From Squalus acanthias (lineage: Eukaryota): DNA of 64,000 nt. The translations under genes and the position numbers were made by a program. The DNA is taken from the NCBI GenBank assembly GCA_030390025.1, contig CM059431.1:147314001-147378000 (forward strand). Direction: 5' to 3'. Of the stretch, positions 450-64,000 are shown in pieces. Positions within the stretch are counted from its first letter, which is position 1. Every line of letters begins with the position of its first letter. The notes under the pieces are model-generated. The model had not been told where the DNA came from. It ran no database searches and saw only the letters and a program-made list of their open reading frames with translations.

Positions 450-1283
450 CTATCCCCAGAGAAAGACTGAGGTTCCAAAAGCAGTCAGAACCCAGACCCA
501 GCAGGCGATTTTGGTGGATGTGGTGCCAGAAACGATCTTGAGACCGGAACCGTCTGACAGCAGCTCCACCTTCACTCTCACTGCCTTGTAGCCTGTCGAG
601 TTGAGGGTGTATCTGTTGCCTCCTGAGGACTCTGTGATGTTGAACTTCTCATAAAGCGGGATCAAAATCTCCTGTTGCGACGGATTGTCTGAGAACCTTT
701 GGAGGTCGACACTGTACGATGGGCTTATTTTAAAGACAGTGCCGTTCCCAAACTTATCAAACTCCTCAGCCACCTTCTTATTGATGGAAGTGGAGGCAAA
801 TATTCCGAACCTCATCTCTGTTCCTAGTGTCCCAGTGATATTACTCTTTGTCCCCTAATACACCGGCCCAATGGAACTGTTTCTCAACACTTCCAGGGCG
901 ACAGATAGAAGGTAGTGAAAGCTCTTCAGTTTAAAGCAGGCATTGTATGTGGTGAGTGTCACCGCCATAGCTTCGAACCTCATTGTTAAATCTGCTGTAC
1001 CAATCTCCACCAATGGTGTAGGCGGTCAGGGCGATGACATGCTCCTCTCGGAGACCATCAGGCACTGTGAGATTCTTCTGTTTCCAACTGGTGGTGGCCT
1101 GTTCCCAGGTAGTGTTGAACTCCGGGTCACTCCCCAGGTATTTTATCGCCAATTCATCGGACGCGTCGCTCCGCGAGAAGTTATAGGCGGCAGAATTTAC
1201 TTCCATGTTCATCTTTGTGCTTGCAGCTTGAATCTGACAATCTATACCCTCGCCATTCACTGGTAAACTGGCCAGACTCATAC
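450..1283 (-). pseudogene. Ecto-ADP-ribosyltransferase (ARTC family) catalytic exon, copy A, disabled
   Basis: Acceptor TTTCTGATTGGCAG ends at 1284. Peptide has NMEVNSAAY, AYTI, FNNEVRSY, SFHYLL, RFGIFASTS, SQQEILIP and a hydrophobic C-terminus. 1-nt insertion near 957 (GACACTCACC vs GACCTCAAC/AAG in paralogs) and in-frame TAG at 857-855 replacing the catalytic Arg of VYRG. Confidence 0.9.
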
Positions 1284-1296
1284 CTGCCAATCAGAA

Positions 1297-1445
1297 AGAC
1301 AGCAATCATTTTACATAGCGCCTTTTCGACCTCAGGATGTGCCACAACGCTTCACTCCCCTCTGCTATTCTTCCAAAAGTGGCCGTGGGATCTTTTAGGT
1401 CGACCTGAGAGGGCAGACAGGGCCTCGGATTAACGTCTCAGACAA
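1297..1445 (-). mobile_element. 3' remnant of tRNA-derived Deu-domain SINE (SacSINE1-like), internally deleted
   Basis: Matches the SINE body/tail at 8660-9125, 34960-35520 and 63055-63345. Confidence 0.75.
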
Positions 1446-7400: not shown

Positions 7401-7893
7401 CCTGCGAAAGTGCAGTGCTCCCTCAGTACTGCCCCTCCGACAGTGCTGCGCTCCCTCAGTACTGCCTCTCCGTGTGTGCAGCTCTCCCTCAGTACTGCCC
7501 TCCGACAATGCAGCGCTCCCTCAGTACTTCCCCTCCGACAGTGCAGCACTCCCTCAGTAATGCCCCTCTGACAGAGCAGCTCTCCCTCAGTACTGCCCTC
7601 CGACAGTGCAGCGCTCCCTCAGTACTGCTCCTCCGACAGTGCAGTGGTCCCGCAGTGCTGTACCTCCAACAGTGCAGCACTCACTCAGTACTGGACCTCC
7701 GACAGTGCAGCACTCCCTCAGTACTGAACCTCCGGCAGTGCGGCGCTCCCTCAGTACTGACCCTTCGACAGTGCAGCGCTCCCTCAGGACTGCCCCTCCG
7801 ACAGTGCAGCGCTCCCTCAGGACTGCCCCTCCGACAGTGCAGCGTTCCCTCAGTAATGCCCTCCAACAGTGCAGCGCTCCCTCTGTACTGCCT
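1445..7893. repeat. 33-bp minisatellite (CAGTACTGCCCCTCCGACAGTGCAGCGCTCCCT)n, ~6.4 kb, derived from the SINE body
   Basis: Unit read directly; gives 11-aa repeat ORFs; a single monomer is present in the intact SINE near 8985-9020. Confidence 0.97.
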
Positions 7894-25686: not shown

Positions 25687-26186
25687 NNNNNNNNNNNNNN
25701 NNNNNNNNNNNNNNNNNNNNNNNNNNNNNNNNNNNNNNNNNNNNNNNNNNNNNNNNNNNNNNNNNNNNNNNNNNNNNNNNNNNNNNNNNNNNNNNNNNNN
25801 NNNNNNNNNNNNNNNNNNNNNNNNNNNNNNNNNNNNNNNNNNNNNNNNNNNNNNNNNNNNNNNNNNNNNNNNNNNNNNNNNNNNNNNNNNNNNNNNNNNN
25901 NNNNNNNNNNNNNNNNNNNNNNNNNNNNNNNNNNNNNNNNNNNNNNNNNNNNNNNNNNNNNNNNNNNNNNNNNNNNNNNNNNNNNNNNNNNNNNNNNNNN
26001 NNNNNNNNNNNNNNNNNNNNNNNNNNNNNNNNNNNNNNNNNNNNNNNNNNNNNNNNNNNNNNNNNNNNNNNNNNNNNNNNNNNNNNNNNNNNNNNNNNNN
26101 NNNNNNNNNNNNNNNNNNNNNNNNNNNNNNNNNNNNNNNNNNNNNNNNNNNNNNNNNNNNNNNNNNNNNNNNNNNNNNNNNNNNNN
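25687..26186. other. Assembly gap (500 N)
   Basis: Run of N; round length suggests a scaffolding placeholder. Confidence 0.99.
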
Positions 26187-26352: not shown

Positions 26353-26618
26353 GATCTAAACAAGGTTCAGTATGTTTGCATGTTGACTGTGAGAAGTTGT
26401 TTAAAGTGGAGAGGACGATGAGACAGAACGCATTTATCCATTGCCCACAGAACATTCAGATGTGTCAGAAGCGAGGTGGAAAGTTTAAGAGAGGAGGAAG
26501 TGGTTTGACTTCGTCCCGTGGATTACAGTAATTCAGCTGAGCGACTAATTTCTTGCAGAGTGTACCTGATTGTGAAGACAAGTTGGTTTATTGCTGAAAT
26601 CCATGTGTTGAAGTAAAG

Positions 26619-26655
26619 ATGGAGTGGCTGTTTCACATTCTGTTCCTGACGTCCT
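26619..26655 (+). pseudogene. Orphan ART signal-peptide exon (MEWLFHILFLTS, phase-1 donor GTGAGT)
   Basis: Near-identical to 34545-34581 and 62674-62710 with the same flanks, but its intron is cut off at ~27800 and no catalytic exon of its own follows. Confidence 0.75.
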
Positions 26656-26744
26656 GTGAGTACCACATCGCTGACTTCAATTCCCCAAACCCTTTGTCCT
26701 CTCCTGCTACATATCTTCCTCATCAATGACTTTCTTTCCTACCT

Positions 26745-27800
26745 GTCAGTCGTGGCTCAGTGGGTCTCAGTCTCTCTCTCTCTCGCCTCTGAGTCAGACG
26801 GTCGTGGGTTCCAGATTCTCCACTCCAGAGACTCGAGCCCCATAATCCCAGGCTGACACTCCCTGGTTGCCCAGTACTGAGGGAGCGCCGCACTGTCGGC
26901 GGGGCAGTACTGAGGGAGCACTGCACTGTCGGAGGGGCAGTACTGAGGGAATGCGCCACACTGTCGGAGGGGCAGTACTGAGGGTGCACTGCACTGTCGG
27001 AGGGGCAGTACTGAGGGAGCGCTGCACTGTTGGAGGGTCAGTACTGAGGGAGTGCTGCACTGTCGGAGGGTCAGTACTGAGGGAGTGCTGCACTGTCGGA
27101 GGGGCAGAACTGAGGGAGCGCTGCACTGTCGGAGGAGGAGTACTGAGGGAGCGCCGCACTGTCGGCGGGTCAGTACTGAGGGAGCGCCGCACTGTCGGAG
27201 GGGCAGTACTGAGGGAGCGCAGCACTATCGGAGGGGCAGTATTCATTGAGCGGTGCACTGTCGGGGGGGCAGTACTGCGTGAGCGCTGCACTGTTGAACG
27301 GGCAGTACTGAGGGAGCGCTGCACTGTCGGAGATGCAGTACTGAGGGAGCGCTGCACTGTCGGAGGGGCAGTACTGAGGGAGCGCTGCACTGTCGGAGAG
27401 GCAGTACTGAGGGAGCGCTGCACTGTCGGAGGGGCAGTACTGAGGGAGCGCTGCACTGTCGGAGGGGCGGTACTGAGGGAGCGCTGCACTGTCGGAGGGG
27501 CAGTACTGAGGGAGCGCTGCATTGTCAGAGGGGCAGTACTTGAGGGAGTGCTACACTGTCAGAGGGGCAGTACTGAGGGAGCGCTGCACTGTCGGGGGGC
27601 AGTACTGAGGGAGCGCTGCACTGTCGGAGGGGCAGCACTGAGTGAGCGCCGCACTGTCGGAGGGCCAGTACTGAGCGAGTGCTGCACTGTCGGAGGGGCC
27701 GTACTCTGGGAGCGCTGCACTGTCAGCTGGGCAGCACTGAGTGAGCGCCGCACTGTCGGATGATACATTAAACCGAGGCCCCGACTGTCCTCTCAGGTTA
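26745..27800 (+). mobile_element. Deu-type SINE 5' half with internal 33-bp array expanded to ~0.9 kb
   Basis: Head GTCAGTCGTGGCTCAGTGGG; array 26872-27760; truncated after CTCTCAGGT. Confidence 0.85.
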
Positions 27801-27819: not shown

Positions 27820-28655
27820 GAGGCCCAACTGTCTTCAGCTGCTTCATCAATGACCTTCACTCGAACATAAGGTCAGAAATGGGGATGTTCGCTGATGACT
27901 GCAGTTTTCAGCGCCATTCACAACTCCTCAGATAATGAAGCAATCCATGCCCGCATGCAACAAGACCTGGACGACGTTCAGGTTTGGGCTGATAAGTGGC
28001 AGCTAATCTTCGTGCCACAGAAGTGCCAGGCAATGACTATCGCCAACAAGCGAGAGTCTAACCACCTCCCCTTGAAATTCAACGACATTACCATCGCCGA
28101 ATCCCCCACTGTAAATATCCTGGGGGTCACCATTGACCAGAAACTGAACTGGAACAGCCACATAAATACTGTGGCAACAAGAGCAGGTCAGAGGCTGGGT
28201 ATTCTGCGGCGAGTGTCGCACCTCCTGACTCCCCAAAGCCTTTCCACCATCTACAAGGCACAAGTCAGGAGTGTGATGGAATACTCTCCACTTACCTGGA
28301 TGAGTGCAGCTCCAACAACACTCAAGAAGCTTGACACCATCCAGGACAAAGTAGCCCTCTTGATTGGCACCCCATCCACCACCTTAAACATTCACTCCCT
28401 CCACCACCGGCGCATCGTGGCTGCAGTGTGTACCATCTACAAGATGCACTGCAGCAACTCGCCAAGGCTTCTTCAGAAGCACCTCCCAAACCCGCGACCT
28501 CTTCCACCTAGAAGGACAAGGGCAGCAGGCACATGGGAACACCACCACCTCCAAGTTCCCCTCCAAGTCACACACCATCCTGACTTAGAAGTATATCTCC
28601 GATCCTTCATCGTCACTGGGTCAAAATCCTGGAACTCCTTCCCGACAAGCAGTGT
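27820..28655 (+). mobile_element. CR1/L2-group LINE (second family), RT C-terminal part; its 3' end resumes at ~33512-33650
   Basis: FADDC, WADKWQ, LGVTIDQKLNWNSHI, YKAQVRSVMEY; tail GGGCAATAAAT...CCCACATCCC plus A-run at 33590-33649. Confidence 0.88.
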
Positions 28656-28943
28656 TTTTTGCATTCGTTTGTGGGATGTGGGCGTCGCTGGCAAGGCCAG
28701 CATTTATTGCCCATCCCTAGTTGCCCTTGAGAAGGTGGTGGTGAGCCGCCTTCTTGAACTGCTGTAGTCCGTGTGTTGAAGGTACTCCAACTGTGCTGTT
28801 AGGGAGGGAGTTCCAGGATTTTGAACCAGCGACGATGAAGGAACGGCCGATATACTTCTAAGTCAGGATGGTGTGTGACTTGGTGATGGTGGTGTTCCCA
28901 TGCGCCTGCTGCCCTTGTCCTTCTAGGTGGAAGAGGTTGCGGG

Positions 28944-31900
28944 TGTCATAAATCGCAAGTAACAACTCAGGAAGTACTACTGGGCGGCCAGCTGGGGCGC
29001 CGTCCAGGGAGTATAAATACTCAGGCATGGGCCCACCTTGGGCAGAGACAATCTGGAAACAGGAAGCTAGTGACTGCTAACTAGACCTCCATGTTTTGTT
29101 ACAAGTTGATTAAAGCCTTGCTTTATGTTCAAGTGCGTAGTGAGTCTTTATTACGTCAATTTAATCAACTTGATATCGTCTCCACGCTTTGGGTGATTCG
29201 GAACAACCAGCTGCAACTCGAACCACAGAAGGGAACTTGGGCAAGAAACTGATCCATCATGGAAAAACTCCTTAGACCCGCTCGTCTCGACCTGGACCCG
29301 AATGCACCTGCGGCAGCAAAGGTATGGAAGCATTGGTTTCGTACCTTTAGCAACTTTCTTGAAGAATGTGGGGCGGATGTCCCTAATAAGTTACGAATGC
29401 TTATCAACTACGTGTCTCCTCATGTGTATGATTATATTGAGGACTGTATAGACTATGACACTGCTATCGAAATCTTACAGCAGCTATTTGTCAAGTCCCC
29501 AAATGAAATCTTTGCTCGACACCTACTGGCCACAACTCGGCAGCAGCCTTGGGAATCACTCGATGAATTTCTCCAGAAACTTCGCAGGCTCAGCAAGGAT
29601 TGTAACCTTAAAGCAGTTTCAGCTGAACAGTATCAAGAGGAACTAATCCGCGATTCCTTTATCAATGGAATCGCGTCCCCTTTTATACGTCAGCGCCTGC
29701 TGGAAAATAAAACCCTCAATTTACGGGCTGCTTATGACCAGGCGTGTTCCTTGGACTTGGCCAAGAAAAATGCAGACACTTATCTCCCACCACGTGCACG
29801 GGCGGCGGCTATCTCCTTTAATGAGTCTTTCGGTAGGTCTCGGGCGGATGCCCCCACTGATGCTGACTCTACTCTAACGGACGACGACCCTACCCTAGAG
29901 GCCTTCGCTGATGACGACCCCGCCCTAGCAGCATCCTGGCAATCAGGAAGAAAGTGTTTCTTTTGTGGAGGGGCGTGCCATCACAGAAAATTTTGCCCGG
30001 CTCGTAATGTGACCTGCAATCATTGCAGCAAGAAAGGACACTTTTCCAAGGTATGCCAGTCACGGGCCTTTGCTAACAAGAAAGGCCGCTCCTCTAAAGT
30101 ATACCAGTCGAGAGCTCCTGTTAGCTTCACAGCTGCTATCTATGGAGCTGCTCCTCCCCCAAGAACTACTGTTAAGGCTACAGTTGCCGAAGGGAAAATT
30201 GCCCCTCCTCCCATCACGGCTGTTTTTCCCCAAAGTTTGTCCCATGCAGCCACGAAGGTTTCAGTAAATGGGCACACTCTAAGCGCGCTAATCGACTCCT
30301 GCAGCTCTGACAGCTTCATTCGTAAGCGGGCTGTCAACAGGTAAAAACTGCACATTTATCCCTCGGACAGGGAGATTGCAATGGCTCTGACGACTCTGAC
30401 CACCAATTCTTCTGGCTTCTGTCTGGTCAACCTCATCCTCAACGGCCGCACGTATCTCTCCACGCGGCTCGGAGTACTCGCAAACTTATGCAGGGATGTG
30501 CTTCTGGGACAGGACTTCCAGAAGCAGCACAAGAAGATCACTTTTGAGTTTGGAGGGTCAAGGCCGGAGCTTACCATTTCTAAGGTGCCGTTTTGTGCAC
30601 TCTCGGCGGCCTTACTCGGTGAACCCTCCCTGTTTGCCAATCTTCCCCCCCGCTGTCAACCCATAGCCACCAAATCGCGGCGCTTTAGTCAAGACGATCG
30701 AGCGTTTATTGAGGCGGAAATCTCTCGCCTTTTAGTCGACGGTATTATCGAGCCATGTTCATCTCCCTGGCGGGCTCAGGTCGTCATCGTGAGGAATGCC
30801 TTAAAACAACATAAAAAACGTCTGTGTATTGATTATTCGCAGACTATTAATCTATATACCGATCTGGATGCCTACCCGCTGCCACGCATAGATGACATGG
30901 TCAACAACCTTGCCAAATACAAGGTATTCTCGACCTTCGATATAAAAAGCGCGTACCATCAGGTGCCACTGCAAGACTCCGACAAGAAGTATACGGCCTT
31001 TGAGGCCAATGGTCGGCTTTTCCAGTTTCGCCGCCTTCCATTCGGGGTCACCAATGGGGTGGCCGTCTTCCAACGGGCCATGGATGGCCTAGCCAGCAAG
31101 AGAACTTGACGGATACCTTTCCGTATTTAGACAATATCACTATTGCCGGCCATGATCAAAAGGAGCATGACGCCAATCTTCAGCGATTTTTTGACGTACT
31201 CCCCCGTCGCCACTTAACGTTAAACGAATCCAAATCGGTGAAGTCGGTGCCATCAGTTTACATTCTTGGCTACTGGGTGGGCAACGGTGTTATTAAACCG
31301 GACCCAGAGCGACTTCGTCCACTTCAGGAGCTCCCTCCCCCGACGAACCTCGGCTCTCTTCGTCGGGCACTTGGCATGTTTGCTTATTACGCAAAATGGA
31401 TACCACACTTCTCCGATAAAATACAGCCCCTGCTCCATGCGAAGTCTTTTCCATTGGAAGCTACGGCTATTTCTGCCTTCAACCTCCTCAAACGACAGCT
31501 GGAGAAAGCCACGCTTCGCTCCATTGACGAAAATCTTCCTTTTGTGGTCGAATGCGATGCATCGGAGGTGGCGATCTCCGCTACCTTGAATCAAGGTGGC
31601 CGACCCGTGGCATTCCTATCCAGAACCTTGCAGGGTAGCGAGCTCCATTACCCCCCCATCGAGAAGGAGGCTACGGCCATCATCGAGGCTGTACGCCAAT
31701 GGGGTCATTTTCTTGCTCGGCGTCATTTTACGCTTATAACTGACCAGCGCTCTGTGGCCTTCATGTTGGAAAACCGGAGGCGCACGAAAATCAAAAATAA
31801 TAAAATTCAACTCTGGAGGATGGAGCTGGCTGCCTTCGGATATACTATCTGTTACCGACCCGGCAAACAGAACGTGGCCCCAGATACCTTCACACGGGCA

Positions 31901-33450
31901 TTTTGCTTCTCAATGTCAACGTCGACTCTGGCGGATTTGCATATGGACTTATGCCATCCTGGTGTGACCCGCATGTTGCACTTTGTGCGCTCCAAAAATC
32001 TACCATTTTCAACCGAGGACGTAAAGAAAACATGCTCCTCCTGTAGGATTTGTGCAGAATTGAAACCACAATTCTTTCGCCCATCAGATGGCTTACTCAT
32101 ACATGCAATGCAGCCTATGCAGAGGCTCAGCATAGACTTTAAAGGGCCATTGCCATCGTCGACAAGGAACACCTGCCTACTTACGATGGTGGACGAGTAT
32201 TCACGCTTTCCCTTCGCCTTCCCCTGCCCTAATATGCTTACCTCTACGGTAATTAAATGCCTCGATCAGGTCTTTTCCCTTTGCGGGACGGCCAATTTTA
32301 TCCACACTGATCGGGGTCCCTCCTTTATGTCGAGTGAACTTAAAAGTTATCTCTCCCAACGGGGAATCGCCTCAAGTAGGACGACACCATATCACCCAAT
32401 CGGTAACGGACAGGTTGAACGATACAATGCCATCATCTGGAACGCTGTCCGTCTGGCACTAAGGTCACGCAACCTGCCGGACCAGCAGTGGGAAACGGTG
32501 CTCCCCGACGCGTTACACTCTATCAGGTCTCTTCTCTCCACATCTACTAATGTCACGCCTCATGAGCGATTCTTCAAATTCCGGCGTCGCTCTACACATG
32601 GGACGTCTCTACCGTCATGGTTGGTGGCTCCAGGCCCGGTACTACTCCGGAGGTTCGTCCGATCTGCCAAAAACGACCCTCTCGTTGACGAGGTGGAGTT
32701 AACGGAGGTAAACCCCACGTATGCGCACGTATGGTACCCTGATGGCCGGGAGACCACCGTCTCGCTCCGAGATCTGGCTCCCTGCCCAACCGGTCACACA
32801 GGCCCGAATGATGAAGGATCCCCCGACAATGATATCAACACTCCGCACCCCTATGAAAATGACGCCCCGCCTGGGACATCGGGGGATCTGCCGGCAACGC
32901 TACCGGATCCACTCAGGGAGCTGGACGCTCCCCGTAGGATGGCCACCCGAAACCAGGACGCCGGACAATCTCCAGCCACGACCCGGATGAGGCCAGCTCA
33001 GCACCTGTGGGGACCCGCTCCCGGAGTCATGATATTCCCAGTCCTCCACAGGATGATCAAGATGACGCGGACTCTACTGACTTACCGGTACGGGCCAAGC
33101 GACCCAGGGACCAGGACACGGTCCGGGGAGACGTGCCTTCCAGTCACAAGCAGAGAGCTAAACGTCTGCGGCTATATCTGGTCCGCCTAGTCCGTTAAAG
33201 GAAGACTGGACTTCCAAACCTTTTCGGGAGGAAGAATGTCATAAATCGCAAGTAACAACTCAGGAAGTACTACTGGGCGGCCAGCTGGGGCGCCGTCCAG
33301 GGAGTATAAATACTCAGGCATGGGCCCACCTTGGGCAGAGACAATCTGGAAACAGGAAGCGAGTGACTGCTAACTAGACTCCATGTTTTGTTACAAGTTG
33401 ATTAAAGCCTTGCTTTATGTTCAAGTGCGTAGTGAGTCTTTATTACGTCA
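28944..33450 (+). mobile_element. Full-length Ty3/Gypsy LTR retrotransposon (Mag-like Gag), LTRs 28944-29158 and 33237-33450
   Basis: TG...CA LTRs differing by one substitution and one indel on my reading; 5-bp TSD GCGGG (28939-28943, 33451-33455); PPT GGGAGGAAGAA at 33226-33236. Confidence 0.97.
29259..33190 (+). pseudogene. Gypsy gag-pol (two CCHC knuckles, protease LIDSCS, RT, RNase H, integrase HHCC/DDE), disrupted
   Basis: In-frame TAA at 30342-30344 between same-frame ORFs 29259 and 30381; frameshift near 31100; domain order PR-RT-RH-IN. Confidence 0.92.
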
Positions 33451-34544: not shown

Positions 34545-36329
34545 ATGGAGTGGCTGTTTCACATTCTGTTCCTGATGTCCTGTGAGTACCACAGCGCTGA
34601 CTTCAATTCCCCAAACCCTTTGTCTTCTCCTGCTACATATCTTCCTGATCAATAACTTTCTTTCCTACCTGTCAGTCGTGGCTCAGTGGGTCTCAGTCTC
34701 TCTCTCTCTCGCCTCTGAGTCAGACGGTCGTGGGTTCCAGATTCTCCACTCCAGAGACTCGAGCCCCATAATCCCAGGCTGACACTCCCTGGTTGCCCAG
34801 GACTGAGGGAGCGCGATACTCTCGGAGGGGCAGTACTGAGGGAGCGCCGCACTGTCGGAGGGGCAGTACTGAGGGAGCGCCGCACTGTCGGAGGGGCAGT
34901 ACTGAGGGAGCGCCGCACTGTCGGAGGGGCAGTACTGAGGGAGCGCTGCACTGTTTGATGAGACATTAATCCAAGGCCCCATCTGCCCTCTCAGGTAGTC
35001 CTAAAAGATCCCACGGCCACTATTGGAAGAATAGCAGAGTGGAGTTCTCCCCGGTGAGGGTGGTGAACCTGTGGAATTCTCTACCACAGAAGGCTGTGGA
35101 GGCCAAGTCACTGAATATATTTTAGAAGGAGATAGATAGATTTCTAGACACAAAAGGCATCAAGGGGTCTGGGGAGAGAGCGGGAATATGGTATTGAGAT
35201 AGAGGATCAGCCATGATCATATTGAATGGTGGAGCAGCTTCGAAGGGCCGAATGGCCTACTCCTGCTCCTATTTTTCGACTATCTTCTATGTTTCTGTGT
35301 CCTGTGGCCCAATATTTATCCCTCATCCAATATCACTTAAAAATAAAACAGATTATCTGGTCCTTTATCACATTGCTGCTTGTGGGAGCTTGCTGTGCGC
35401 AATTGGCCGCCGCCTTCCCCACATTACAACAGCGACCACACTTCAAAAGTACTTCATTGGCTGTGAAGCGTTGTGGCACATCCTGAGGTCGAAAAGGCAC
35501 GGTATAAATTGGAATTCTGTCTTTCTGATTGGCAGGTGTGAGTCTGGTCAGTTTACCAGTGAATGGCGAGGGTATAGATTGTCAGATTCAAGCTGCAAGC
35601 ACAGAGCTGAACATGGAAGGAAATTCTGCCGCCTATTACTTCTCGCGGAGCGAGGCGTCCGATAACTTGGTGATAAAATCCCTGAAGACAGAGCTGGGGA
35701 GGGTCCGGGGGTTTGTGAGTATCTGGGAACAGGCCACCAACAGTTGGAGAGGCAATATACACAAAAAGCCTGATGGTCTCCGAGAGGAGCATGTCATCGC
35801 CATGACCGCCTACACCATTCACAGGGATTTGGTAGAGATTTGTACAGTACCTTGAACGATGGGGTTCGAAGCTATGGCGGTGACCTCAACACATACAATG
35901 CCTGCTTTAACCTGAAGAGCTTTCACTTCCTTCTATCTGTCGCCCTTGCAAGTGTTGAGAAACACTTCCATTGGGCGGCCGGTGTATCGGGGGACAAAGA
36001 GTCAGATCTCTGGGACACTGGGCACAGAGATGAGGTTTGGAATATTTGCCTCCACTTCCTTCAATAAGACGGTGGCGAAGGACTTTGGGATAAACCCTTT
36101 CTTTGAAATAAAGACATTGTACGGTGTCGACCTCCATAATTTCACGGTCAACGTGACGCAACAGGAGGTCTTGATCCCGCCTTATGAGAAGTTCAAAATC
36201 ACAGAGCCTCAGGAGATAACAGGAGATACACCCTCGAACTCGAGAGGCTACAAGGGAGTGGAGGTGTGGCTCGGGTTGGACGGGTCGGGTAGTCTGATCG
36301 TTTATTCGATAATCCCCTGGTGGGTCTAG
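34545..36329 (+). pseudogene. Ecto-ADP-ribosyltransferase copy B (exons 34545-34581 and 35536-36329), frameshifted
   Basis: Spliced N-terminus MEWLFHILFLMSCVSLVSLP; VYRG, FASTS, TQQEVLIPPYEKF. Lesions: 11-nt insertion near 35830, 1-nt insertion near 35946, compensating indels at ~36207-36236, TAG at 36327 where copy A has TGG. Confidence 0.9.
34670..35520 (+). mobile_element. Intronic Deu-type SINE with a short 33-bp array, interrupted by a CR1 3' fragment (~35057-35297)
   Basis: Colinear with the uninterrupted SINE at 62800-63345; insert reads RVVNLWNSLPQKAVEA and ends CTATGTTTCT. Confidence 0.85.
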
Positions 36330-45153: not shown

Positions 45154-45253
45154 GAGTAAAGCTCCCTCTACACTGTCCCATCAAACACTTCCACGGCAGG
45201 TACAGCACGGGTTAGATACAGAGTAAAGCAACCTCTACACTGTCCATTCAAAC

Positions 45254-47667
45254 CAGCAACCGAAGAAAAAAGAGTCAAACTGGACCCCTCCGGAGGGTCG
45301 CTGCCCCAAGCTTGACATGTATGCTCAAGCTGTCAGGAGATGCATCAACGCCAGATTCATCAGCCGCACTCACAAGACAGTCCAGAATGTCACCCGAGCA
45401 CAACGCAACGCCATCCACGCTCTCAAGACCAACCACAACATTGTCATCAAACCAGCGGACAAAGGAGGAGCCATCGTCATACAGAACAGAACGGACTATT
45501 GTAAAGAAGCATACCGACAACTGGACAACCAGGAACACTACAGACAGCTACCCGCAGATCCGACCAAAGAACACACCCGCCAACTCAATAGACTGATCAA
45601 GACCTTCGATCCAGACCTTCAAAACATCCTACGCGCTCTCATCCCACGTACTCCCCGCGTGGGAGACTTCTACTGCCTCCCAAAGATACACGAAGCCAAC
45701 ACACCCGGACGTCCTATCGTATCAGGCAATGGAACCCTGTGTGAGAACCTCTCTGGATACGTCGAGGGCATTCTGAAACCCATCGTACAGGGAACCCCCA
45801 GCTTCTGCCGCGACACTACAGACTTCTTACAGAAACTCAGCACCCACGGACCAGTTGAACCAGGAACACTCCTTGCCACGATGACGTATCGGCACTCTAC
45901 ACCAGTATCCCCCACGATGAAGGCATCGCTGCAACAGCCTCAGTACTCAACACCAACAACAGCCAATCTCCAGACACCATCCTACAACTCATCCGCTTCA
46001 TCCTGGACCACAATATCTTCACCTTCGACAACCATTTTTTTACCCAAACACACGGAACAGCCATGGGGACCAAATTCGCACCCCAATACGCCAACATCTT
46101 CATGCACAAGTTCGAGCAAGACTTCTTCGCTGCACAGGACCTCCAGCCAATGCTGTACACCAGATACATCGACGACATTTTCTTCCTTTGGACCCATGGC
46201 GAAGGATCACTGAAAAGACTACACGATAACAGAAACAAGTTCCATCCAACCATCAAACTCACCATGGACTACTCCTCAGAATCGGTTTCATTCCTGGACA
46301 CACGAATCTCCATCAAAGACGGACACCTCAGCACTTCACTCTACCGCAAGCCCACGGACAACCTCACGATGCTCCACTTCTCCAGCTTCCACCCTAACCA
46401 TGTTAAAGAAGCCATCCCCTATGGACAAGCCCTGCGAATACACAGGTTCTGCTCAGACGAGGAGGAACGCGATGGACACCTACGGACGCTGAAAAACAGC
46501 CTCGTAAGAACGGGATATGACGCTCGACTCATCGATCGACAGTTCCGACGGGCCACAGCGAAAAATCGCATAGACCTCCTCAGAAGGCAAACACGGGACA
46601 CAACCAACAGGGTACCCTATGTCGTCCAGTACTTCCCCGGAGCGGAGAAACTACGCCATGTTCTTCGCAGCCTTCAACATGTCATCGATGACGACAAACA
46701 GGCCATCCCCACGCCTCCACTACTAGCCTTCAAACAGCCGCCTAACCTCAGAAGTACCATCGTTCGCAGCAAATTACCCAGCTTTCAGGATAACAGCGAC
46801 CACGACACCACACAACCCTGCCACGGCAAACTCTGCAAGACATGCCAGATAATCAACACAGATACCACCATCACACGTGGACACTAACCACCAGGTACAT
46901 GGTACATACTCATGTGACTCGGCCAACGTTGTCTACCTCATACGTTGCAGGAAAGAATGCACCGCGGCATGGTACATCGGCGAGACCATGCAGACACTGA
47001 GACAACGTATGAACGAGCACCGCGCAACAATCGCCAGGCAGGATGGTTACCTCCCAGTCGGGGAACACTTCAGCAGTCAAGGACATTCAGCCTCGGATCT
47101 GCGGGTAAGCGTTCTCCAAGGCAACCTTTGAAACACACGACAACGCAAAATCATCGAGCAGAAACTGATAGCCAAGTTCCGCACTCATGAAGACGGTCTC
47201 AACCGGGATCTTGGGTTTATGTCACGATACATGACGTGATCCAGACTCGAGTCGTCGTTGGCTTGTTCACAGATGTGATTCCCAGTAAAAAAGTAAAAAT
47301 TTTCCCAGTAAAAAAGTAAAAATTTTAAAGCTTTTCGTTTTACATACAGACGGCAGCTTTTGACACGTTAGAACCCCTGCGACTACACCTCATTGTCTCA
47401 GTTGTATCTTGCTATGTCTTTGATGTGGTACCTTCCTGGCTGACCTGATTAACTTTATCACACCTCGGCAGATAGTCAGGATGATTTAATTTAGTGGTCT
47501 GCAATTGTAAGGTACACATGCTTTGTTCTCTATCTATATATGCTTTGGCGATTCTGTATCTATTTACTTCACCTGAGGAAGGGGCAATCGATAGCTCCGA
47601 AAGCTTGTGATTTCAAATAAAACTGTTGGACTATAACCTGGTGTTGTGCGACTTCTCAATTTTGTCC
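45254..47667 (+). mobile_element. Penelope-like retroelement (RT plus GIY-YIG endonuclease), 5'-truncated and frameshifted
   Basis: KPADKGG, YCLPKIH, GRPIVS, GTAMGTKFAP, RYIDD, LYRKPT, VVYLIRC...WYIGET; frameshifts near 45890 and 46880, TGA at 47129. Confidence 0.95.
47569..47610 (+). ncRNA. Minimal type I hammerhead ribozyme motif in the Penelope 3' region
   Basis: TCAC-CTGAGGA-A-GGGGC/GCTCC-GAA-AGCT-T-GTGA: CUGANGA and GAAA cores, stem II, palindromic stem III. Confidence 0.7.
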
Positions 47668-54851: not shown

Positions 54852-57800
54852 CGATCGACAGGTAATAGACGGGCATCGGATCGGCTTGATCTCTGTGCTT
54901 TTTCTCGAGAAGGTAAGCACTGAGATAATGTTCAGATTCTTGAAAGAAAGATTTTTGAGGAGGACACAAGGAGGGTAGCGCGTTTGATGTAGTCTGTATG
55001 GACTTTAGAAAGGCTTTTGAGAAGGTCCCACACGGCAAACTGGTCAGAAAAGTAAAAGCCCAGGGGATTCAAGGGAAAGTGGCAAGTTGGATCCAGAATG
55101 GGATCAGTGGCAGGAAGCAAAGGGTAATGGTCGACGGGTGTTTTTGTGACTGGAAGGCTGTTTCCAGTGGGGTTCCGCAGGGCTCTGTACTAGGTTCCTC
55201 GCTTTTCGTGGCATATATCGATGTTTTAGACTTCAATATAGGGGGCCATGATTAAGAAGTTTACAGATGATGCATGAATCGTCCGTGTGGTTGATAGTGA
55301 GGAAGAAAGCTGTAGACTGCAGGAAGATATCAATGGACTGGTCAAGGGGGCAGAACAGTGGCAAATGGAATTCAATCCGGAGAAGTGTGAAGTAATGTGT
55401 TTGGGGAGAGCTTTCAAGGGAAGGGAATATCGTAGGACACTGAGACGTGTAGAGGAACAGTGGGACCTTGGAGTGCAGGTCCACAGATCCCTGAGGCAGC
55501 AGGACAGGTAGTTAAGGTGGTTAAGAAGGCAGACAGGATACTTTCCTTTATTAGCCAAGGCATAGAATATAAGATTGAGAGGTCGCAGAACACCAGGTTA
55601 TAGTCCAACAGTTTTATTTGAAATCACAAGCTTTCGGAGCTATCGATTGCTCCTTCCTCAGGTGAAGTAAATTAGATACAGAATCGCCAAAGCATATATA
55701 GATAGAGAACAAAGCATGTGTACCTTACAATTGCAGACCACTAAATTAAATCATCCTGACTATCTGCCGAGGTGTGATAAAGTTAATCAAGTCAGCCAGG
55801 AAGGTACTACATCAAAGACATAGCAAGATACAACTGAGACAATGATCTGTAGTCGCAGGGGTTCTAACGTGTCAAAAGCTGCCGTCTGTATGTAAAACGA
55901 AAAGCTTTAAAATTTTTACTTTTTTACTGGGAAAATTTTTACTTTTTTACTGGGAATCACATCTGTGAACAAGCCAACGACGACTCGAGTCCGGATCACG
56001 TCATGTATCGTGACATAAACGCAAGATCCCGGTTGAGACCGTCTTCATGAGTGCGGAACTTGGCTATCAGTTTCTGCTCGATGATTTTGCGTTGTCGTGT
56101 GTTTCTAAGGTTGCCTTGGAGAACGCTTACCCGCAGATCCGAGGCTGAATGTCCTTGACTGCTGAAGTGTTCCCCGACTGGGAGGTAACAATCCTGCCTG
56201 GCGATTGTTGCGTGGTGCTCGTTCATACGTTGTCTCAGTGTCTGCATGGTCTCGCCGATGTACCATGCTGCGGTGCATTCTTTCCTGCAACGTATGAGGT
56301 AGACAACGTTGGCCGAGTCACATGAGTATGTACCATGTACCTGGTGGGTAGTGTCCTCACGTGTGATGGTGGTATCTGTGTTGATGATCTGGCATGTATT
56401 GCAGAGACTTGGGGGTGTTGGTGCACAAATCTTTGTTGGTGGCATTACAGGTTAACAGAGTGGTGAATAAAGCATATGGGATCCTGGGTTTATAAATAGA
56501 GGTAAAGAGTAGAAAAGACAGCAAGTTATGCTAAATCTTTATAAAACAGGAGTTCAGCACCAGCAAGATGGTGAGGTGGAAACCCCATTTTGCCCTTGCT
56601 TAAAAAACGTGTGATCCTGCTCGTGGTGTGATATGGAGACCAGACCTGTGCACAGTGCTCCAAGTGTGATATGGAGACCAGAACTGTGCACAGTGCTCCA
56701 AGTGTGATATGGAGACCAGAACTGTGCACAGTAACTACAAGTGTGATATGGAGACCAGAACTGTGCACAGTGCTCCAAGTGTGATATGGAGACCAGAACT
56801 GAGCACAGTGCTCCAAGTGTGATATGGTGACCAGAACTGAGCACAGTGCTCCAAGTGTGATATGGAGACCAGAACTGAGCACAGTGCTCCAAGTGTGATA
56901 TGGAGACCGGAACTGTGCACAGTGCTCCAAGTGTGATATGGAGACCAGAACTGTGCACAGTGCTCCAAGTGTGATGTGGAGAACAGAATTGTGCGCAGTG
57001 CTCCAAGTGTGATATGGAGACCAGAACTGTGCACAGTACTCCAAGTGTGATGTGGAGAACAGAATTGTGCGCAGTGCTCCAAGTGTGATATGGAGACCAG
57101 AACTGTGCACAGTACTGCAAGTGTGATATGGAGACCAGAACTGTGCACAGTGCTCAAAATGTGATATGGAGATCAGAACTGTGCACGGTAATCGAAGACA
57201 TTTTTTAACTTTGTGGCTCCTTATTGTCTAGCTACGATGTTATCCTCCTGCGTTTTCTTGCATTTTGCGATCCTCTTATCATGTTGGTGTTTGTTACTTG
57301 ACCTTGCTGACACTTGAACCATTTGTTCCTGACTGCACATTAATTTCTGTTCTAAGTGTCAAACTTCATCAATGAATCTTATAGCTATTTCTTACACGAT
57401 CGACAGATAATAGACGGGCATCGGATCGGCTTGATCTCTGTGCTTTTTCTCGAGAAGGTCAGCACTGAGACAATGTTCAGATTCTTGAAAGAAAGATTTT
57501 TGAGGAGGACACAAGGAGGGTAGCGCGTTTCATGTCGTCTGTATGGACTTTCGAAAGGCTTTTGATAAGGTCCCACATCGCAAACTGGTCAGAAAATTAA
57601 AAGTCCAGGGGATTCAAGGGATGATGGCAAGTTGGATCCAGAATGGGATCAGTGGCAGGAAGCAGAGGGTAATGGTCGACGGGTGTTTTTGTGACTGGAA
57701 TGCTGTCTCCAGTGGGGTTCCGCAGGGCTCCGTACTAGGTTCCTCGCTTTTCGTGTCATATATCGATGTTTTAGACTTCAATATAGGGGGCCATGATTAA

Positions 57801-60800
57801 GAAGTTTACAGATGATGCATGAATCGTCCGTGTGGTTGATAGTGAGGAAGAAAGCTGTAGACTGCAGGAAGATATCAATGGACTGGTCAAGGGGGCAGAA
57901 CAGTGGCAAATGGAATTCAATCCGGAGAAGTGTGAAGTAATGTGTTTGGGGAGAGCTTTCAAGGGAAGGGAATATCGTAGGACACTGAGACGTGTAGAGG
58001 AACAGTGGGACCTTGGAGTGCAGGTCCACAGATCCCTGAGGCAGCAGGACAGGTAGTTAAGGTGGTTAAGAAGGCAGACAGGATACTTTCCTTTATTAGC
58101 CAAGGCATAGAATATAAGATTGAGAGGTCGCACAACACCAGGTTATAGTCCAACAGTTTTATTTGAAATCACAAGCTTTCGGAGCTATCGATTGCTCCTT
58201 CCTCAGGTGAAGTAAATTAGATAAAGAATCGCCAAAGCATATATAGATAGAGAACAAAGCATGTGTACCTTACAATTGCAGACCACTAAATTAAATCATC
58301 CTGACCATCTGCCGAGGTGTGATAAAGTTAATCAAGTCAGCCAGGAAGGTACCACATCAAAGACATAGCAAGATACAACTGAGACAATGATCTGTAGTCG
58401 CAGGGGTTCTAACGTGTCAAAAGCTGCCGTCTGTATGTAAAACGAAAAGCTTTAAAATTTTTACTTTTTTACTGGGAAAATTTTTACTTTTTTACTGGGA
58501 ATCACATCTGTGAACAAGCCAACGACGACTCGAGTCCGGATCACGTCATGTATCGTGACATAAACGCAAGATCCCGGTTGAGACCGTCTACATGAGTGCG
58601 GAACTTGGCTATCAGTTTCTGCTCGATGATTTTGCGTTGTCGTGTGTTTCTAAGGTTGCCTTGGAGAACGCTTACCCGCAGATCCGAGGCTGAATGTCCT
58701 TGACTGCTGAAGTGTTCCCCGACTGGGAGGTAACAATCCTGCCTGGCGATTGTTGCGTGGTGCTCGTTCATACGTTGTCTCAGTGTCTGCATGGTCTCGC
58801 CGATGTACCATGCCGCGGTGCATTCTTTCCTGCAACGTATGAGGTAGACAACGTTGGCCGAGTCACATGAGTATGTACCATGTACCTGGTGGGTAGTGTC
58901 CTCACGTGTGATGGTGGTATCTGTGTTGATGATCTGGCATGTCTTGCAGAGACTTGGGGGTGTTGGTGCACAAATCTTTGTTGGTGGCATGACAGGTTAA
59001 CAGAGTGGTGAATAAAGCATATGGGATCCTGGGTTTATAAATAGAGGTAAAGAGTAGAAAAGACAGCAAGTTATGCTAAATCTTTATAAAACAGGAGTTC
59101 AGCACCAGCAAGATGGTGAGGTGGAAACCCCATTTTGCCCTTGCTTAAAAAACGTGTGATCCTGCTCGTGGTGTGATATGGAGACCAGACCTGTGCACAG
59201 TGCTCCAAGTGTGATATGGAGACCAGAACTGTGCACAGTGCTCCAAGTGTGATATGGAGACCAGAACTGTGCACAGTAACTACAAGTGTGATATGGAGAC
59301 CAGAACTGTGCACAGTGCTCCAAGTGTGATATGGAGACCAGAACTGAGCACAGTGCTCCAAGTGTGATATGGTGACCAGAACTGAGCACAGTGCTCCAAG
59401 TGTGATATGGAGACCAGAACTGAGCACAGTGCTCCAAGTGTGATATGGAGACCGGAACTGTGCACAGTGCTCCAAGTGTGATATGGAGACCAGAACTGTG
59501 CACAGTGCTCCAAGTGTGATGTGGAGAACAGAATTGTGCGCAGTGCTCCAAGTGTGATATGGAGACCAGAACTGTGCACAGTACTCCAAGTGTGATGTGG
59601 AGAACAGAATTGTGCGCAGTGCTCCAAGTGTGATATGGAGACCAGAACTGTGCACAGTACTCCAAGTGTGATATGGAGACCAGAACTGTGCACAGTGCTC
59701 AAAATGTGATATGGAGATCAGAACTGTGCACGGTAATCGAAGACATTTTATGACTTTGTGGCTCCTTATTGTCTAGCTACGATGTTATCCTCCTGCGTTT
59801 TCTTGCATTTTGCGATCCTCTTATCATGTTGGTGTTTGTTACTTGACCTTGCTGACACTTGAACCATTTGTTCCTGACTGCACATTAATTTCTGTTCTAA
59901 GTGTCAAACTTCATCAATTAATCTAATAGCTATTTCTTACACGATCGACAGATAATAGACGGGCATCGGATCGGCTTGATCTCTGTGCTTTTTCTCGAGA
60001 AGGTCAGCACTGAGACAATGTTCAGATTCTTGAAAGAAAGATTTTTGAGGAGGACACAAGGAGGGTAGCGCGTTTGATGTCGTCTGTATGGACTTTCGAA
60101 AGGCTTTTGATAAGGTCCCACATCGCAAACTGGTCAGAAAATTAAAAGTCCAGGGGATTCAAGGGATGATGGCAAGTTGGATCCAGAATGGGATCAGTGG
60201 CAGGAAGCAGAGGGTAATGGTCGACGGGTGTTTTTGTGACTGGAATGCTGTCTCCAGTGGGGTTCCGCAGGGCTCCGTACTAGGTTCCTCGCTTTTCGTG
60301 TCATATATCGATGTTTTAGACTTCAATATAGGGGGCCATGATTAAGAAGTTTACAGATGATGCATGAATCGTCCGTGTGGTTGATAGTGAGGAAGAAAGC
60401 TGTAGACTGCAGGAAGATATCAATGGACTGGTCAAGGGGGCAGAACAGTGGCAAATGGAATTCAATCCGGAGAAGTGTGAAGTAATGTGTTTGGGGAGAG
60501 CTTTCAAGGGAAGGGAATATCGTAGGACACTGAGACGTGTAGAGGAACAGTGGGACCTTGGAGTGCAGGTCCACAGATCCCTGAGGCAGCAGGACAGGTA
60601 GTTAAGGTGGTTAAGAAGGCAGACAGGATACTTTCCTTTATTAGCCAAGGCATAGAATATAAGATTGAGAGGTCGCACAACACCAGGTTATAGTCCAACA
60701 GTTTTATTTGAAATCACAAGCTTTCGGAGCTATCGATTGCTCCTTCCTCAGGTGAAGTAAATTAGATACAGAATCGCCAAAGCATATATAGATAGAGAAC

Positions 60801-61800
60801 AAAGCATGTGTACCTTACAATTGCAGACCACTAAATTAAATCATCCTGACTATCTGCCGAGGTGTGATAAAGTTAATCAAGTCAGCCAGGAAGGTACCAC
60901 ATCAAAGACATAGCAAGATACAACTGAGACAATGATCTGTAGTCGCAGGGGTTCTAACGTGTCAAAAGCTGCCGTCTGTATGTAAAACGAAAAGCTTTAA
61001 AATTTTTACTTTTTTACTGGGAAAATTTTTACTTTTTTACTGGGAATCACATCTGTGAACAAGCCAACGACGACTCGAGTCCGGATCACGTCATGTATCG
61101 TGACATAAACGCAAGATCCCGGTTGAGACCGTCTTCATGAGTGCGGAACTTGGCTATCAGTTTCTGCTCGATGATTTTGCGTTGTCGTGTGTTTCTAAGG
61201 TTGCCTTGGAGAACGCTTACCCGCAGATCCGAGGCTGAATGTCCTTGACTGCTGAAGTGTTCCCCGACTGGGAGGTAACAATCCTGCCTGGCGATTGTTG
61301 CGTGGTGCTCGTTCATACGTTGTCTCAGTGTCTGCATGGTCTCGCCGATGTACCATGCCACGGTGCATTCTTTCCTGCAACGTATGAGGTAGACAACGTT
61401 GGCCGAGTCACATGAGTATGTACCATGTACCTGGTGGGTAGTGTCCTCACGTGTGATGGTGGTATCTGTGTTGATGATCTGGCATGTCTTGCAGAGACTT
61501 GGGGGTGTTGGTGCACAAATCTTTGTCGGTGGCATGACAGGTTAACAGAGTGGTGAATAAAGCATATGGGATCCTGGGTTTATAAATAGAGGTAAAGAGT
61601 AGAAAAGACAGCAAGTTATGCTAAATCTTTATAAAACAGGAGTTCAGCACCAGCAAGATGGTGAGGTGGAAACCCCATTTTGCCCTTGCTTAAAAAACGT
61701 GTGATCCTGCTCGTGGTGTGATATGGAGACCAGACCTGTGCACAGTGCTCCAAGTGTGATATGGAGACCAGAACTGTGCACAGTGCTCCAAGTGTGATAT
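54852..61800. repeat. Tandem triplication, period 2545 bp (units start 54852, 57397, 59942): CR1 fragment, inverted Penelope 3' end, CR1 fragment, 38-bp array
   Basis: Matching ORFs recur at exact 2545 offsets (55996/58541/61086; 55287/57832/60377). Confidence 0.95.
55573..56408 (-). mobile_element. Penelope 3' fragment (GIY-YIG plus hammerhead motif at 55624-55665); repeated at +2545 and +5090
   Basis: Reverse complement of ~46830-47660; GIY-YIG frame open here. Confidence 0.92.
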
Positions 61801-62400
61801 GGAGAAAAGAACTGTGCACAGTAACTACAAGTGTGATATGGAGACCAGAACTGTGCACAGTAACTCCAAGTGTGATATGGAGACCAGAACTGTGCACATT
61901 ATTCCAAGAGTCATATGGAGACCAGAACTGTGCACATTACTCCAAGTGTGATATGGAGACCACAACTGTACAAATTAATCCAGGTGTGATATGGAGATCA
62001 GAAATGTGCACAGTACTCCAGGTGTGATATGGAGACCAGAACTGCGCACAGTAACTCCAAGTGTGATATGGAGACCAGAACTGTGCACAGTGCTCCAAGT
62101 GTGATATGGAGACCACAACTGTACAAATTAATCCAGGTGTGATATGGAGATCAGAAATGTGCACAGTACTCCAGGTGTGATATGGAGACCAGAACTGCGC
62201 ACAGTAACTCCAAGTGTGATATGGAGACCAGAACTGTGCACAGTGCTCCAAGTGTGATATGGAGACCAGAACTGTGCACAGTGCTCCAAGTGTGATATGG
62301 AGACCAGAACTGTGCACAATACTCCAAGTGTGATATGGAGACCAGAACTGTGCTCAGTGCTCCAAGTGTGATATGGAGACCAGAACTGTGCACTAGACTT
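61715..62400. repeat. 38-bp CR1-derived minisatellite upstream of ART copy C
   Basis: Unit read directly. Confidence 0.92.
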
Positions 62401-62673
62401 CAAGTACTGTCTAACTAAGGTTCAGTACGTGTGCATGTTGACAGTGAGAAGATGTTTAAAGTGGAGAGGATGATGAGACAGAGCGCATTTATTCATTGCC
62501 CACAGACCATTCAGATGTGTGAGGTGTCTGATTGAGAAATTTAAGAAAGGGGAAGTGTTTTGACTTTGTCACATGAGCTACATTAAACCTGCTGAGCGAC
62601 TAATTTCTTGCAGAGTGTACCTGATTGTGAAGACAAGTTGTTTTATTGCCGGAATCCTTGTGCTGAAGTAAAG

Positions 62674-62710
62674 ATGGAGTGGCTGTTTCACATTCTGTTC
62701 CTGACGTCCT
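62674..62710 (+). CDS. ART copy C signal-peptide exon (MEWLFHILFLTS + T, phase 1)
   Basis: AAGATGG start context, donor GTGAGT at 62711; phase matches acceptor at 63360. Confidence 0.82.
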
Positions 62711-62799
62711 GTGAGTACCACAACGCTGACTTCAATTCCCCAAACCCTTTGTCCTCTCCTGCTGCATATCTTCCTGATCAATGACTTTCTTTCCTACCC

Positions 62800-63345
62800 G
62801 TCAGTCGTGGCTCAGTGGGTCTCAGTCTCTCTCTCTCTCGCCTCTGAGTCAGACGGTCCTGGGTTCCAGATTCTCCACTCCAGAGACTCGAGCCACATAA
62901 TCCCAGGCTGACACTCCCTGGTTGCCCAGTACTGAGGGAGCGCTATACTCTCGGAGGGGCAGTACTGAGGGAGCGCCGCACTGTCGGAGGGGCAGTATTG
63001 AGGGAGCGCTGCACTGTCGGAGGGGCAGTACTGAGGGAGCGCTGCACTGTTGTCTGAGACATTAAACCGAGGCCCCGTCTGCCCTCTCAGGTAGACCTAA
63101 AAGGTCCCACGGCCACTATTGGAAGAATAGTAGAGGGGAGTTCTGCCCGGTGTCCTGTGGCCCAATATTTACCCCTTGTCCAACATCACTTAAAAATAAA
63201 ACAGATTATCTGGTCCTTTATCACATTGCTGATTTTGGGAGCTTGCTGTGCGCAATTGGCCCCCGCGTTTCTTGCATCACAACAGCGACCACACATCAAA
63301 AGCACTTCATTGGTGGTGAAAGGCGCGGTAAAATTGCAGTTCTGT
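62800..63345 (+). mobile_element. Intronic Deu-type SINE with four 33-bp units
   Basis: Head, body and tail colinear with 8660-9125. Confidence 0.85.
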
Positions 63346-63360
63346 CTTTCTGATTGGCAG

Positions 63361-64000
63361 GTCGGAGTCTGGTCAGTTTACCAGTGAATCCGAAGGGTAC
63401 AGATTGTCAGATTCTACCTCCAAGCTCAGTGTTGAACATGGCAGAAAATTCTGCCGCCTATTACTTCTCGCGGAGCGAGGCGTCCGATGAATCGGCGATA
63501 AAATTCCTGCAGGCAGAGCTGGAGAATAACGCGGCATTTGTGAAATACTGGAAAAAAGCCAAGGACAGTTGGGAAGGCAAGACCGTGCCTGGTGGTCTCC
63601 GAAAGGAGCATGTCATCGCTATCACCGCCTACACCATTAATGGAAGTTTGTATGAAACCTTCAACAATGGGGTTCGAAGCTATGGCGGTGACCTCAAGAA
63701 ATACAATGACTGCTTTAAACTGAAGAGCTTTCACTACCTTCTGTCTGTCGCCCTGGATGTGTTGAAAAACAGTTCCATTGGGCCGGTGGTGTATCGGGGA
63801 ATAAAGAGTCAGGTCTCTGGGACACTGGGAACAGAGATGAGGTTTGGAATATTTGCCTCCACTTCCTTCAATGAGGTGGTGGCTAAGGAGTTTGCGAAGT
63901 CTAAATCAGGCACTGTCTTTGAAATAAACACATTGTACGGTGTCGACCTCCGAAAGTTCACGGTGAACGTGACGCAAGAGGAGGTCTTGATCCCGCCTTA
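63361..64000 (+). CDS. Ecto-ADP-ribosyltransferase copy C catalytic exon, open to the window end
   Basis: Manual translation without stops: RSLVSLPVNPKGTDCQ...LNMAENSAAYYF...AITAYTINGSLYETFNNGVRSY...SFHYLL...VYRG...RFGIFASTS...TQEEVLIPP. Confidence 0.93.

Follow-up and report, generated by a model that had tools for sequence, protein, structure and literature searches.

Among the ecto-ADP-ribosyltransferases (ecto-ARTs) of the vertebrate ARTC family, the glutamate two places before the catalytic glutamate decides arginine specificity (PMC3102197), and rat ART2, which carries Q-x-E in place of E-x-E, hydrolyses NAD without modifying targets (PMC3102197, PMC8038981), a rule that a preliminary description of the DNA studied here had invoked and that is indeed in print. 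The hydrolysis rate of rat ART2.2 is given as at least 500-fold above that of other ARTs (PMC8038981), and when human ART1 is given Gln at the specificity position its transfer activity is lost and modest hydrolysis remains (PMC13229280), so that a strong NADase is not implied by the motif itself. Reviews present rat ART2 as the sole vertebrate Q-x-E ecto-ART, and further background on the family is given in PMC2576468, PMC8415550, PMC4248024 and PMC8053099. The motif lies in the ARTT loop, X-X-phi-X-X-E/Q-X-E, where phi stands three places before the E/Q; a Tyr or Phe at phi grips RhoA in C3, and a Trp stacks on guanine in ScARP (PMC7827354).

The stretch of DNA analysed here (64,000 nt, hereafter the window) is of a repeat-rich vertebrate type, with 54 tandem-repeat rows and one 500-N gap, and contains four ARTC units: A, B and C, each with a catalytic exon, and D, an exon-1-only remnant. 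No fourth catalytic exon was found in the window by tblastn. Copies A, B and D are dead, and copy C is the sole open copy in the window. In a protein database homolog search the closest relatives of copy C were from sharks and rays, and from its sequence it is probably a working cartilaginous-fish ARTC-family gene, with the following features:

62674..62710, + strand: copy C exon 1, carrying the ATG and the hydrophobic beginning of a signal peptide; donor GTGAGT (phase 1) at 62711
62711..63360, + strand: copy C intron 1, 650 nt, GT-AG, acceptor ...TTGGCAG, with a 33-mer minisatellite at 62927-63050
63361..64000, + strand: copy C exon 2, an open ARTC catalytic domain that leaves the window at 64000
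63795..63797, + strand: catalytic Arg (CGG), corresponding to R126 of rat ART2.2
63858..63866, + strand: S-T-S motif
63966..63974, + strand: phi of the ARTT loop, Asn and not aromatic (N-V-T, a possible glycosylation site)
63975..63983, + strand: Q-E-E, in which Gln Q205 corresponds to rat Q187 and catalytic Glu E207 to rat E189

Like other vertebrate ARTC genes, copy C has its predicted signal peptide on a separate exon, and this exon is supported by a similar start peptide in the Heterodontus homolog P0021. In one contig, from a run presumed to be RNA, letters of exon 1 run straight into the second exon of a paralog, which is thus present in spliced form; RNA-presumed contigs at least 99% alike to copy C numbered 1 of 15 and 0 of 9 in two public runs. 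Exon 2 contributes 212 open codons up to the window end, and the translation of this stretch has three N-glycosylation sequons and two Cys, at residues 15 and 117. Copy C thus combines a signal exon, splice sites, the ARTC fold and an intact R-S-E triad with Gln at the specificity position.

The motif positions given for all three catalytic copies in the preliminary description proved exact (the Arg at 63795, S-T-S, Q-E-E and the two Q-Q-E), as did its choice of the third motif residue as the catalytic Glu. In a PDB sequence alignment, the Q-E-E of copy C falls on Q187-E188-E189 of rat ART2.2, and the residue mutated in the rat structures 1og3 and 1og4 (E189I, E189A) aligns with E207, so that the catalytic Glu is placed correctly. 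The R-S-E triad is present in C and in the reading of B and absent from A, which has a stop at the Arg; copy C lacks the arginine-specific R-S-EXE motif and carries the rat ART2-type Q-x-E with intact R and S. Q205, N202 and E207 are the same in A, B and C while neighbouring residues vary. To speak of three paralogs nevertheless says too much: all three match the Pfam ART family (PF01129; 128.7 bits and E 2.7e-37 for copy C, cutoff 22.3), but A and B are pseudogenes, and since the three form one clade of recent duplicates in the homolog tree (SH-aLRT 91), their Gln counts as a single inherited event.

The only PDB sequence matches of copy C were to rat ART2.2 (3 distinct sequences, E 4e-20). 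For an AlphaFold model of copy C (149-row alignment, pLDDT 95), the top fold match was again rat ART2.2 (TM 0.82; Z 23.3, rmsd 1.8 over 184 residues), followed by the next chain at Z 13.1, C3 at 9.3, scabin at 3.6 and pierisin at 2.5, with scabin, pierisin and pertussis toxin together spanning Z 2.4-3.6. Rat ART2.2 (RT6.2; PDB 1gxy, 1og1, 1og3, 1og4) shares with copy C the fold, the residues R126/S/Q187/E189 and, in the aligned chain, a non-aromatic residue at phi, and has a secreted ectodomain, as predicted for copy C. The rat enzyme is the single characterised vertebrate Q-x-E precedent and, at about 35% identity, is likened to copy C by sequence and fold, not as an ortholog; in sharks, moreover, the Gln is old and clade-wide, unlike a one-species exception.

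Because the nearest solved relative by both sequence and fold is rat ART2.2, the better-supported half of the earlier interpretation, which had offered either a surface NADase or an enzyme for a non-arginine acceptor, is the NADase half, and by analogy we consider it moderately likely that copy C would act as an ecto-NAD glycohydrolase in the manner of rat ART2. A transmembrane helix at its C-terminus would anchor the protein at the cell surface, and extracellular NAD would be bound by its Arg and Ser; the catalytic Glu would cleave off nicotinamide, and, with neither a second Glu to position a guanidinium nor an aromatic residue to bind a target, the ADP-ribose would be handed mainly to water. 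Extracellular NAD, the presumed substrate of arginine-specific paralogs, would thereby be removed and ADP-ribose released. In mammals, extracellular NAD is a danger signal.

It is extremely improbable, in our judgement, that copy C has stayed an arginine-specific transferase despite its Gln: across five natural pairs and mutagenesis, arginine was modified by E-x-E enzymes only (PMC3102197), and the human ART1 Gln data agree with this rule (PMC13229280), although the homologs bear the automatic NCBI name 'NAD(P)(+)--arginine ADP-ribosyltransferase-like' and rat ART2.2 is described as auto-ADP-ribosylating (PMC8038981). Arginine-specific ARTCs with PF01129, such as human ART1 and ART5, mouse ART2 and chicken ART4, resemble copy C in their domain, in a signal exon with a large catalytic exon and in R-S-E; they differ in having Glu at -2, where copy C has Gln, and in a D-D-Q-Y-x-x-C motif that is lacking in the clade of copy C.

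At phi, copies A, B and C carry Asn, which is neither the Trp of guanine ARTs nor the Tyr or Phe of C3. Among the pooled homologs together with A, B and C, Trp at phi occurs in 0 of 68 Q-x-E rows, Phe or Tyr in 30 of 68 Q rows and 101 of 180 E rows, and Asn in 19 of 68 Q rows versus 4 of 180 E rows. On independent pairs, median sign tests of phi-Gln co-evolution gave p 0.25 for N/D, p 0.125 for non-aromatic residues and p 0.02 for a non-hydrophobic coding, the last being a third, post hoc coding. Glycan capping of the ARTT loop was rejected as a general mechanism, since just 5 of the 19 Q rows that have Asn in this place carry the sequon.

These counts bear on the other half of the earlier interpretation, namely that copy C is a transferase for a non-arginine acceptor, be it an Asn, Gln or Cys of a protein, a small molecule or a guanine nucleoside. 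Q-x-E is indeed used by pertussis toxin, C3 and enzymes of the pierisin type (PMC3102197), the Asn that accompanies Gln might shape another acceptor site, 30 of the Q rows retain an aromatic phi, and the N-terminal helices diverge fast (see below). C3 and ScARP, however, need an aromatic phi (PMC7827354) where copy C has an Asn that may be glycosylated, Trp at phi occurs in none of the Q rows, the association of Asn with Gln falls short of significance on independent pairs, and the reviews consulted give arginine as the only ecto-ART acceptor (PMC8053099), so that we regard a non-arginine acceptor as quite unlikely. The suggested likeness to C3, pierisin and scabin is correspondingly disfavoured: these enzymes and ScARP share the R-S-E class and Q-x-E with copy C, but the folds of C3, pierisin and scabin are distant (Z 9.3, 2.5 and 3.6), and copy C, without an aromatic phi, is predicted to be an extracellular host enzyme.

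The other units and the main neighbouring elements in the window are as follows:

450..1283, - strand: copy A exon 2, pseudogene, with S-T-S at 794-786 and Q-Q-E at 677-669
34545..34581, + strand: copy B exon 1
35536..36329, + strand: copy B exon 2, pseudogene, with Arg at 35988, S-T-S at 36051 and Q-Q-E at 36159-36167
26355..26870, + strand: remnant D, the upstream block with exon 1 (ATG 26619) and no catalytic exon behind it
62927-63050 (C, about 4 copies) and 34798-34954 (B, about 5 copies): 33-mer minisatellite, found in intron 1 of every unit
26872-27760 (D, about 27 copies) and 1445-7892 (A, about 196 copies): the same 33-mer minisatellite
27871-28767, + strand: 298-codon frame in the place expected for the catalytic exon of remnant D
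28944-33450, + strand: young LTR retrotransposon between remnant D and copy B, with 215-bp terminal repeats 99% identical
45227-46887, + strand: frameshifted reverse-transcriptase element with an RVT_1 match
54852-62290: a 2545-bp unit present three times in tandem (96.5-98% identity), lying immediately upstream of copy C

Copy A has a TAG (857-855) in place of the catalytic Arg codon, a one-base insertion (+1 frameshift) near 957 and a further stop at 452-450. Upstream of it a 516-bp block carrying exon 1, which is present at 62410, 34281 and 26355 in units C, B and D, is missing, and two flanking minisatellites meet there; the loss falls at the edge of the 33-mer minisatellite of copy A. Copy B is broken by an 11-nt insertion (35818-35828) with a stop at 35853-35855, by a 1-nt insertion near 35946 and by a stop (36327-36329) where the hydrophobic C-terminal segment begins, of which both A and B retain broken versions. 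Assembly error as the source of the lesions in A and B is opposed by several independent lesions, a two-base CpG-type change and the lost exon.

Copies A, B and C are 80-83% identical to one another in DNA. In two public runs, 121 and 206 DNA contigs matched exon 2 of copy C at 80% likeness, 42 and 87 of which are less than 90% alike to it, pointing to many more paralogs, with contig numbers not to be read as copy number. We infer that the locus is a birth-and-death tandem array of ARTC genes. One contig from a public run presumed to be RNA has 2 differences in 62 bases against copy C (63461-63522) and then continues with the copy-A-like, shorter-form letters, a hint of gene conversion or of additional paralogs. 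The assembly gap of 500 N lies at 25687-26186, just upstream of remnant D, and further copies could hide there. Among the neighbours, the LTR retrotransposon has long gag-like and pol frames, with reverse transcriptase, RNase H and integrase in Ty3/Gypsy order, and each 2545-bp unit contains a 38-mer minisatellite along with a GIY-YIG-like fragment. The reverse-transcriptase element at 45227-46887 we take to be Penelope-like by resemblance, and the 298-codon frame, which had no Pfam match, presumably derives from the end of a LINE reverse transcriptase.

Between C and B, dN is 0.199 against a dS of 0.087, and flanking non-coding DNA of the copies differs by 7-8.5%. A codon model for A, B and C gave a dN/dS of 2.13 (p 0.002, 197 of 212 codons), which was 3.05 (p 0.001) in residues 1-135 and 1.38 in residues 136-212; with indel-adjacent codons removed it fell to 1.46-1.74 (p 0.11-0.16), not significantly different from 1. 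These estimates, overall about 1.5-2.3, are based on three sequences of which two are pseudogenes, and they suggest diversifying selection on the N-terminal helices. A ratio that is not below 1 across the three copies is also expected from decay, and counts against a working enzyme. It is accordingly to be weighed whether copy C is itself dead or dying, through a lesion beyond the window or want of expression, with its Gln just inherited in a decaying array. Three of the four units in the window are broken, the ratio is indistinguishable from 1 once indel-flanking codons are removed, and the last roughly 70 codons of copy C lie beyond the window end. The branch leading to copy C, on the other hand, has acquired 0 stops where 2.75 would be expected had it been neutral throughout (chance of none 0.064), which mildly favours a live gene; its splice sites and catalytic triad are intact, its sole domain indel is in frame, and annotated open Gln-bearing orthologs exist in other sharks, so that the subfamily would be alive even if copy C were dead. 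A dead copy C is in our view unlikely.

Fast surface divergence would also fit a surface protein or alloantigen with almost no activity, comparable to human ART3 or ART4, that serves for binding and not catalysis, and acatalytic ARTCs do exist (PMC2576468, PMC3102197). Known acatalytic members, though, have lost triad residues or carry Lys, while copy C retains R, S and E and the 16 codons around S-T-S are protein-identical in A, B and C, which makes this explanation very unlikely.

Copy C falls in a 43-row clade in which all 24 named rows are from cartilaginous fish, and the N-terminal D-D-Q-Y-x-x-C motif is found in 0 of the 40 database rows inside this clade and in 198 of the 220 homologs outside it. 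Within the clade, a 9-row subclade (SH-aLRT 92) comprises A, B, C, P0001 from Heptranchias, P0021, P0027 and P0029 from Heterodontus, and P0123 and P0121, the last two placed by the tree only; the trees contained no named mammalian ART2 row. Gln is present in 8 of the 9 rows, the exception being P0121 with Glu. The "subfamily" of the preliminary description is thus real, as a mostly-Gln subclade of the ARTC tree, and as it spans distant shark orders it is old. Its Heptranchias and Heterodontus members, named 'ecto-ADP-ribosyltransferase 5-like', are database predictions for which no functional study was found in the literature searched; they are 48-52% identical to copy C and share its Q-E-E, a similar signal peptide and a hydrophobic C-terminal segment. 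In 4 of the 6 database members of the subclade, the C-terminus consists of a 19-residue window with a mean hydropathy of 2.6-2.9 followed by a tail of 5-9 residues, whereas P0027 has no such tail and P0029 is a fusion with part of a reverse transcriptase. The segment and short tail read as a putative transmembrane anchor, and one may be inferred for copy C, whose end lies beyond the window, from these closest full-length relatives. ARTCs, by comparison, are described as GPI-anchored or secreted (PMC8038981).

The distribution of Q-x-E was surveyed in a pool of the top 120 of 791 and the top 150 of 426 matches, 260 distinct proteins in all, one of which was left out as the site was not covered. 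E-x-E occurs in 180 and Q-x-E in 65 of the 259 domains counted, a Q share that may be high because the pool is biased towards the Gln-bearing query; the rarity of Q-x-E that the preliminary description implied does not hold in this pool. Homologs with intact Arg, Ser and Glu have Glu in 173, Gln in 62 and other residues in 6 of 241 cases. By group, among the best 120 of 791, Q-x-E is found in 7 of 24 named proteins from sharks and rays, 10 of 12 from the herring order, 1 of 6 from birds and 0 of 1 from frog, and in 19 of the remaining 77, which are mostly from the carp order. Also among the homologs were fish ARTs carrying fused Kazal domains, and ARTs with two domains, one of which has lost the triad (P0020, P0030 (Labeo), P0009, P0010, P0122).

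On trees built without the motif columns, 37-38 E/Q changes are required (46 over all states), against a mean of 61 and a minimum of 53 with shuffled labels. Random decay of a Glu codon yields Lys and Gly as its commonest mutational outcomes; as both are nearly absent, Gln appears to have been selected rather than to have arisen by random decay, and the position to be a selected two-state switch, flipped many times in vertebrate ARTCs. A search of mainly open-access literature turned up nothing on ecto-ARTs of sharks or other fish, or on how widely Q-x-E is distributed, though an earlier census of Q-x-E may exist in print; a shark lymphocyte atlas (PMC11372145) gave no text match for the topic terms.

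A more far-reaching proposal is that the Gln/Asn transmembrane shark subclade represents the first vertebrate non-arginine ecto-ART, its fast-evolving N-terminal helical surface picking out targets that are foreign or polymorphic as part of an immune arms race, and that the E/Q switch, with at least 37 flips, lets arrays keep paired paralogs, one a 'writer' and the other an 'other-acceptor or NAD-sink'; we give this little credence.

The family, the fold and the motif were already known, and what is new is the subclade of Gln-bearing, putatively transmembrane-anchored shark proteins together with the repeated switching. The locus alone, with one probably working gene among dead copies, carries limited weight. 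Long treated as a rat oddity, Q-x-E turns out to be common in fish, and if the rat rule holds, NADases of the ARTC fold acting outside the cell would be a standard element of extracellular NAD signalling in fish, and one that has re-evolved many times. Natural pairs of E and Q paralogs would then be ready test cases for what decides between transfer and hydrolysis.
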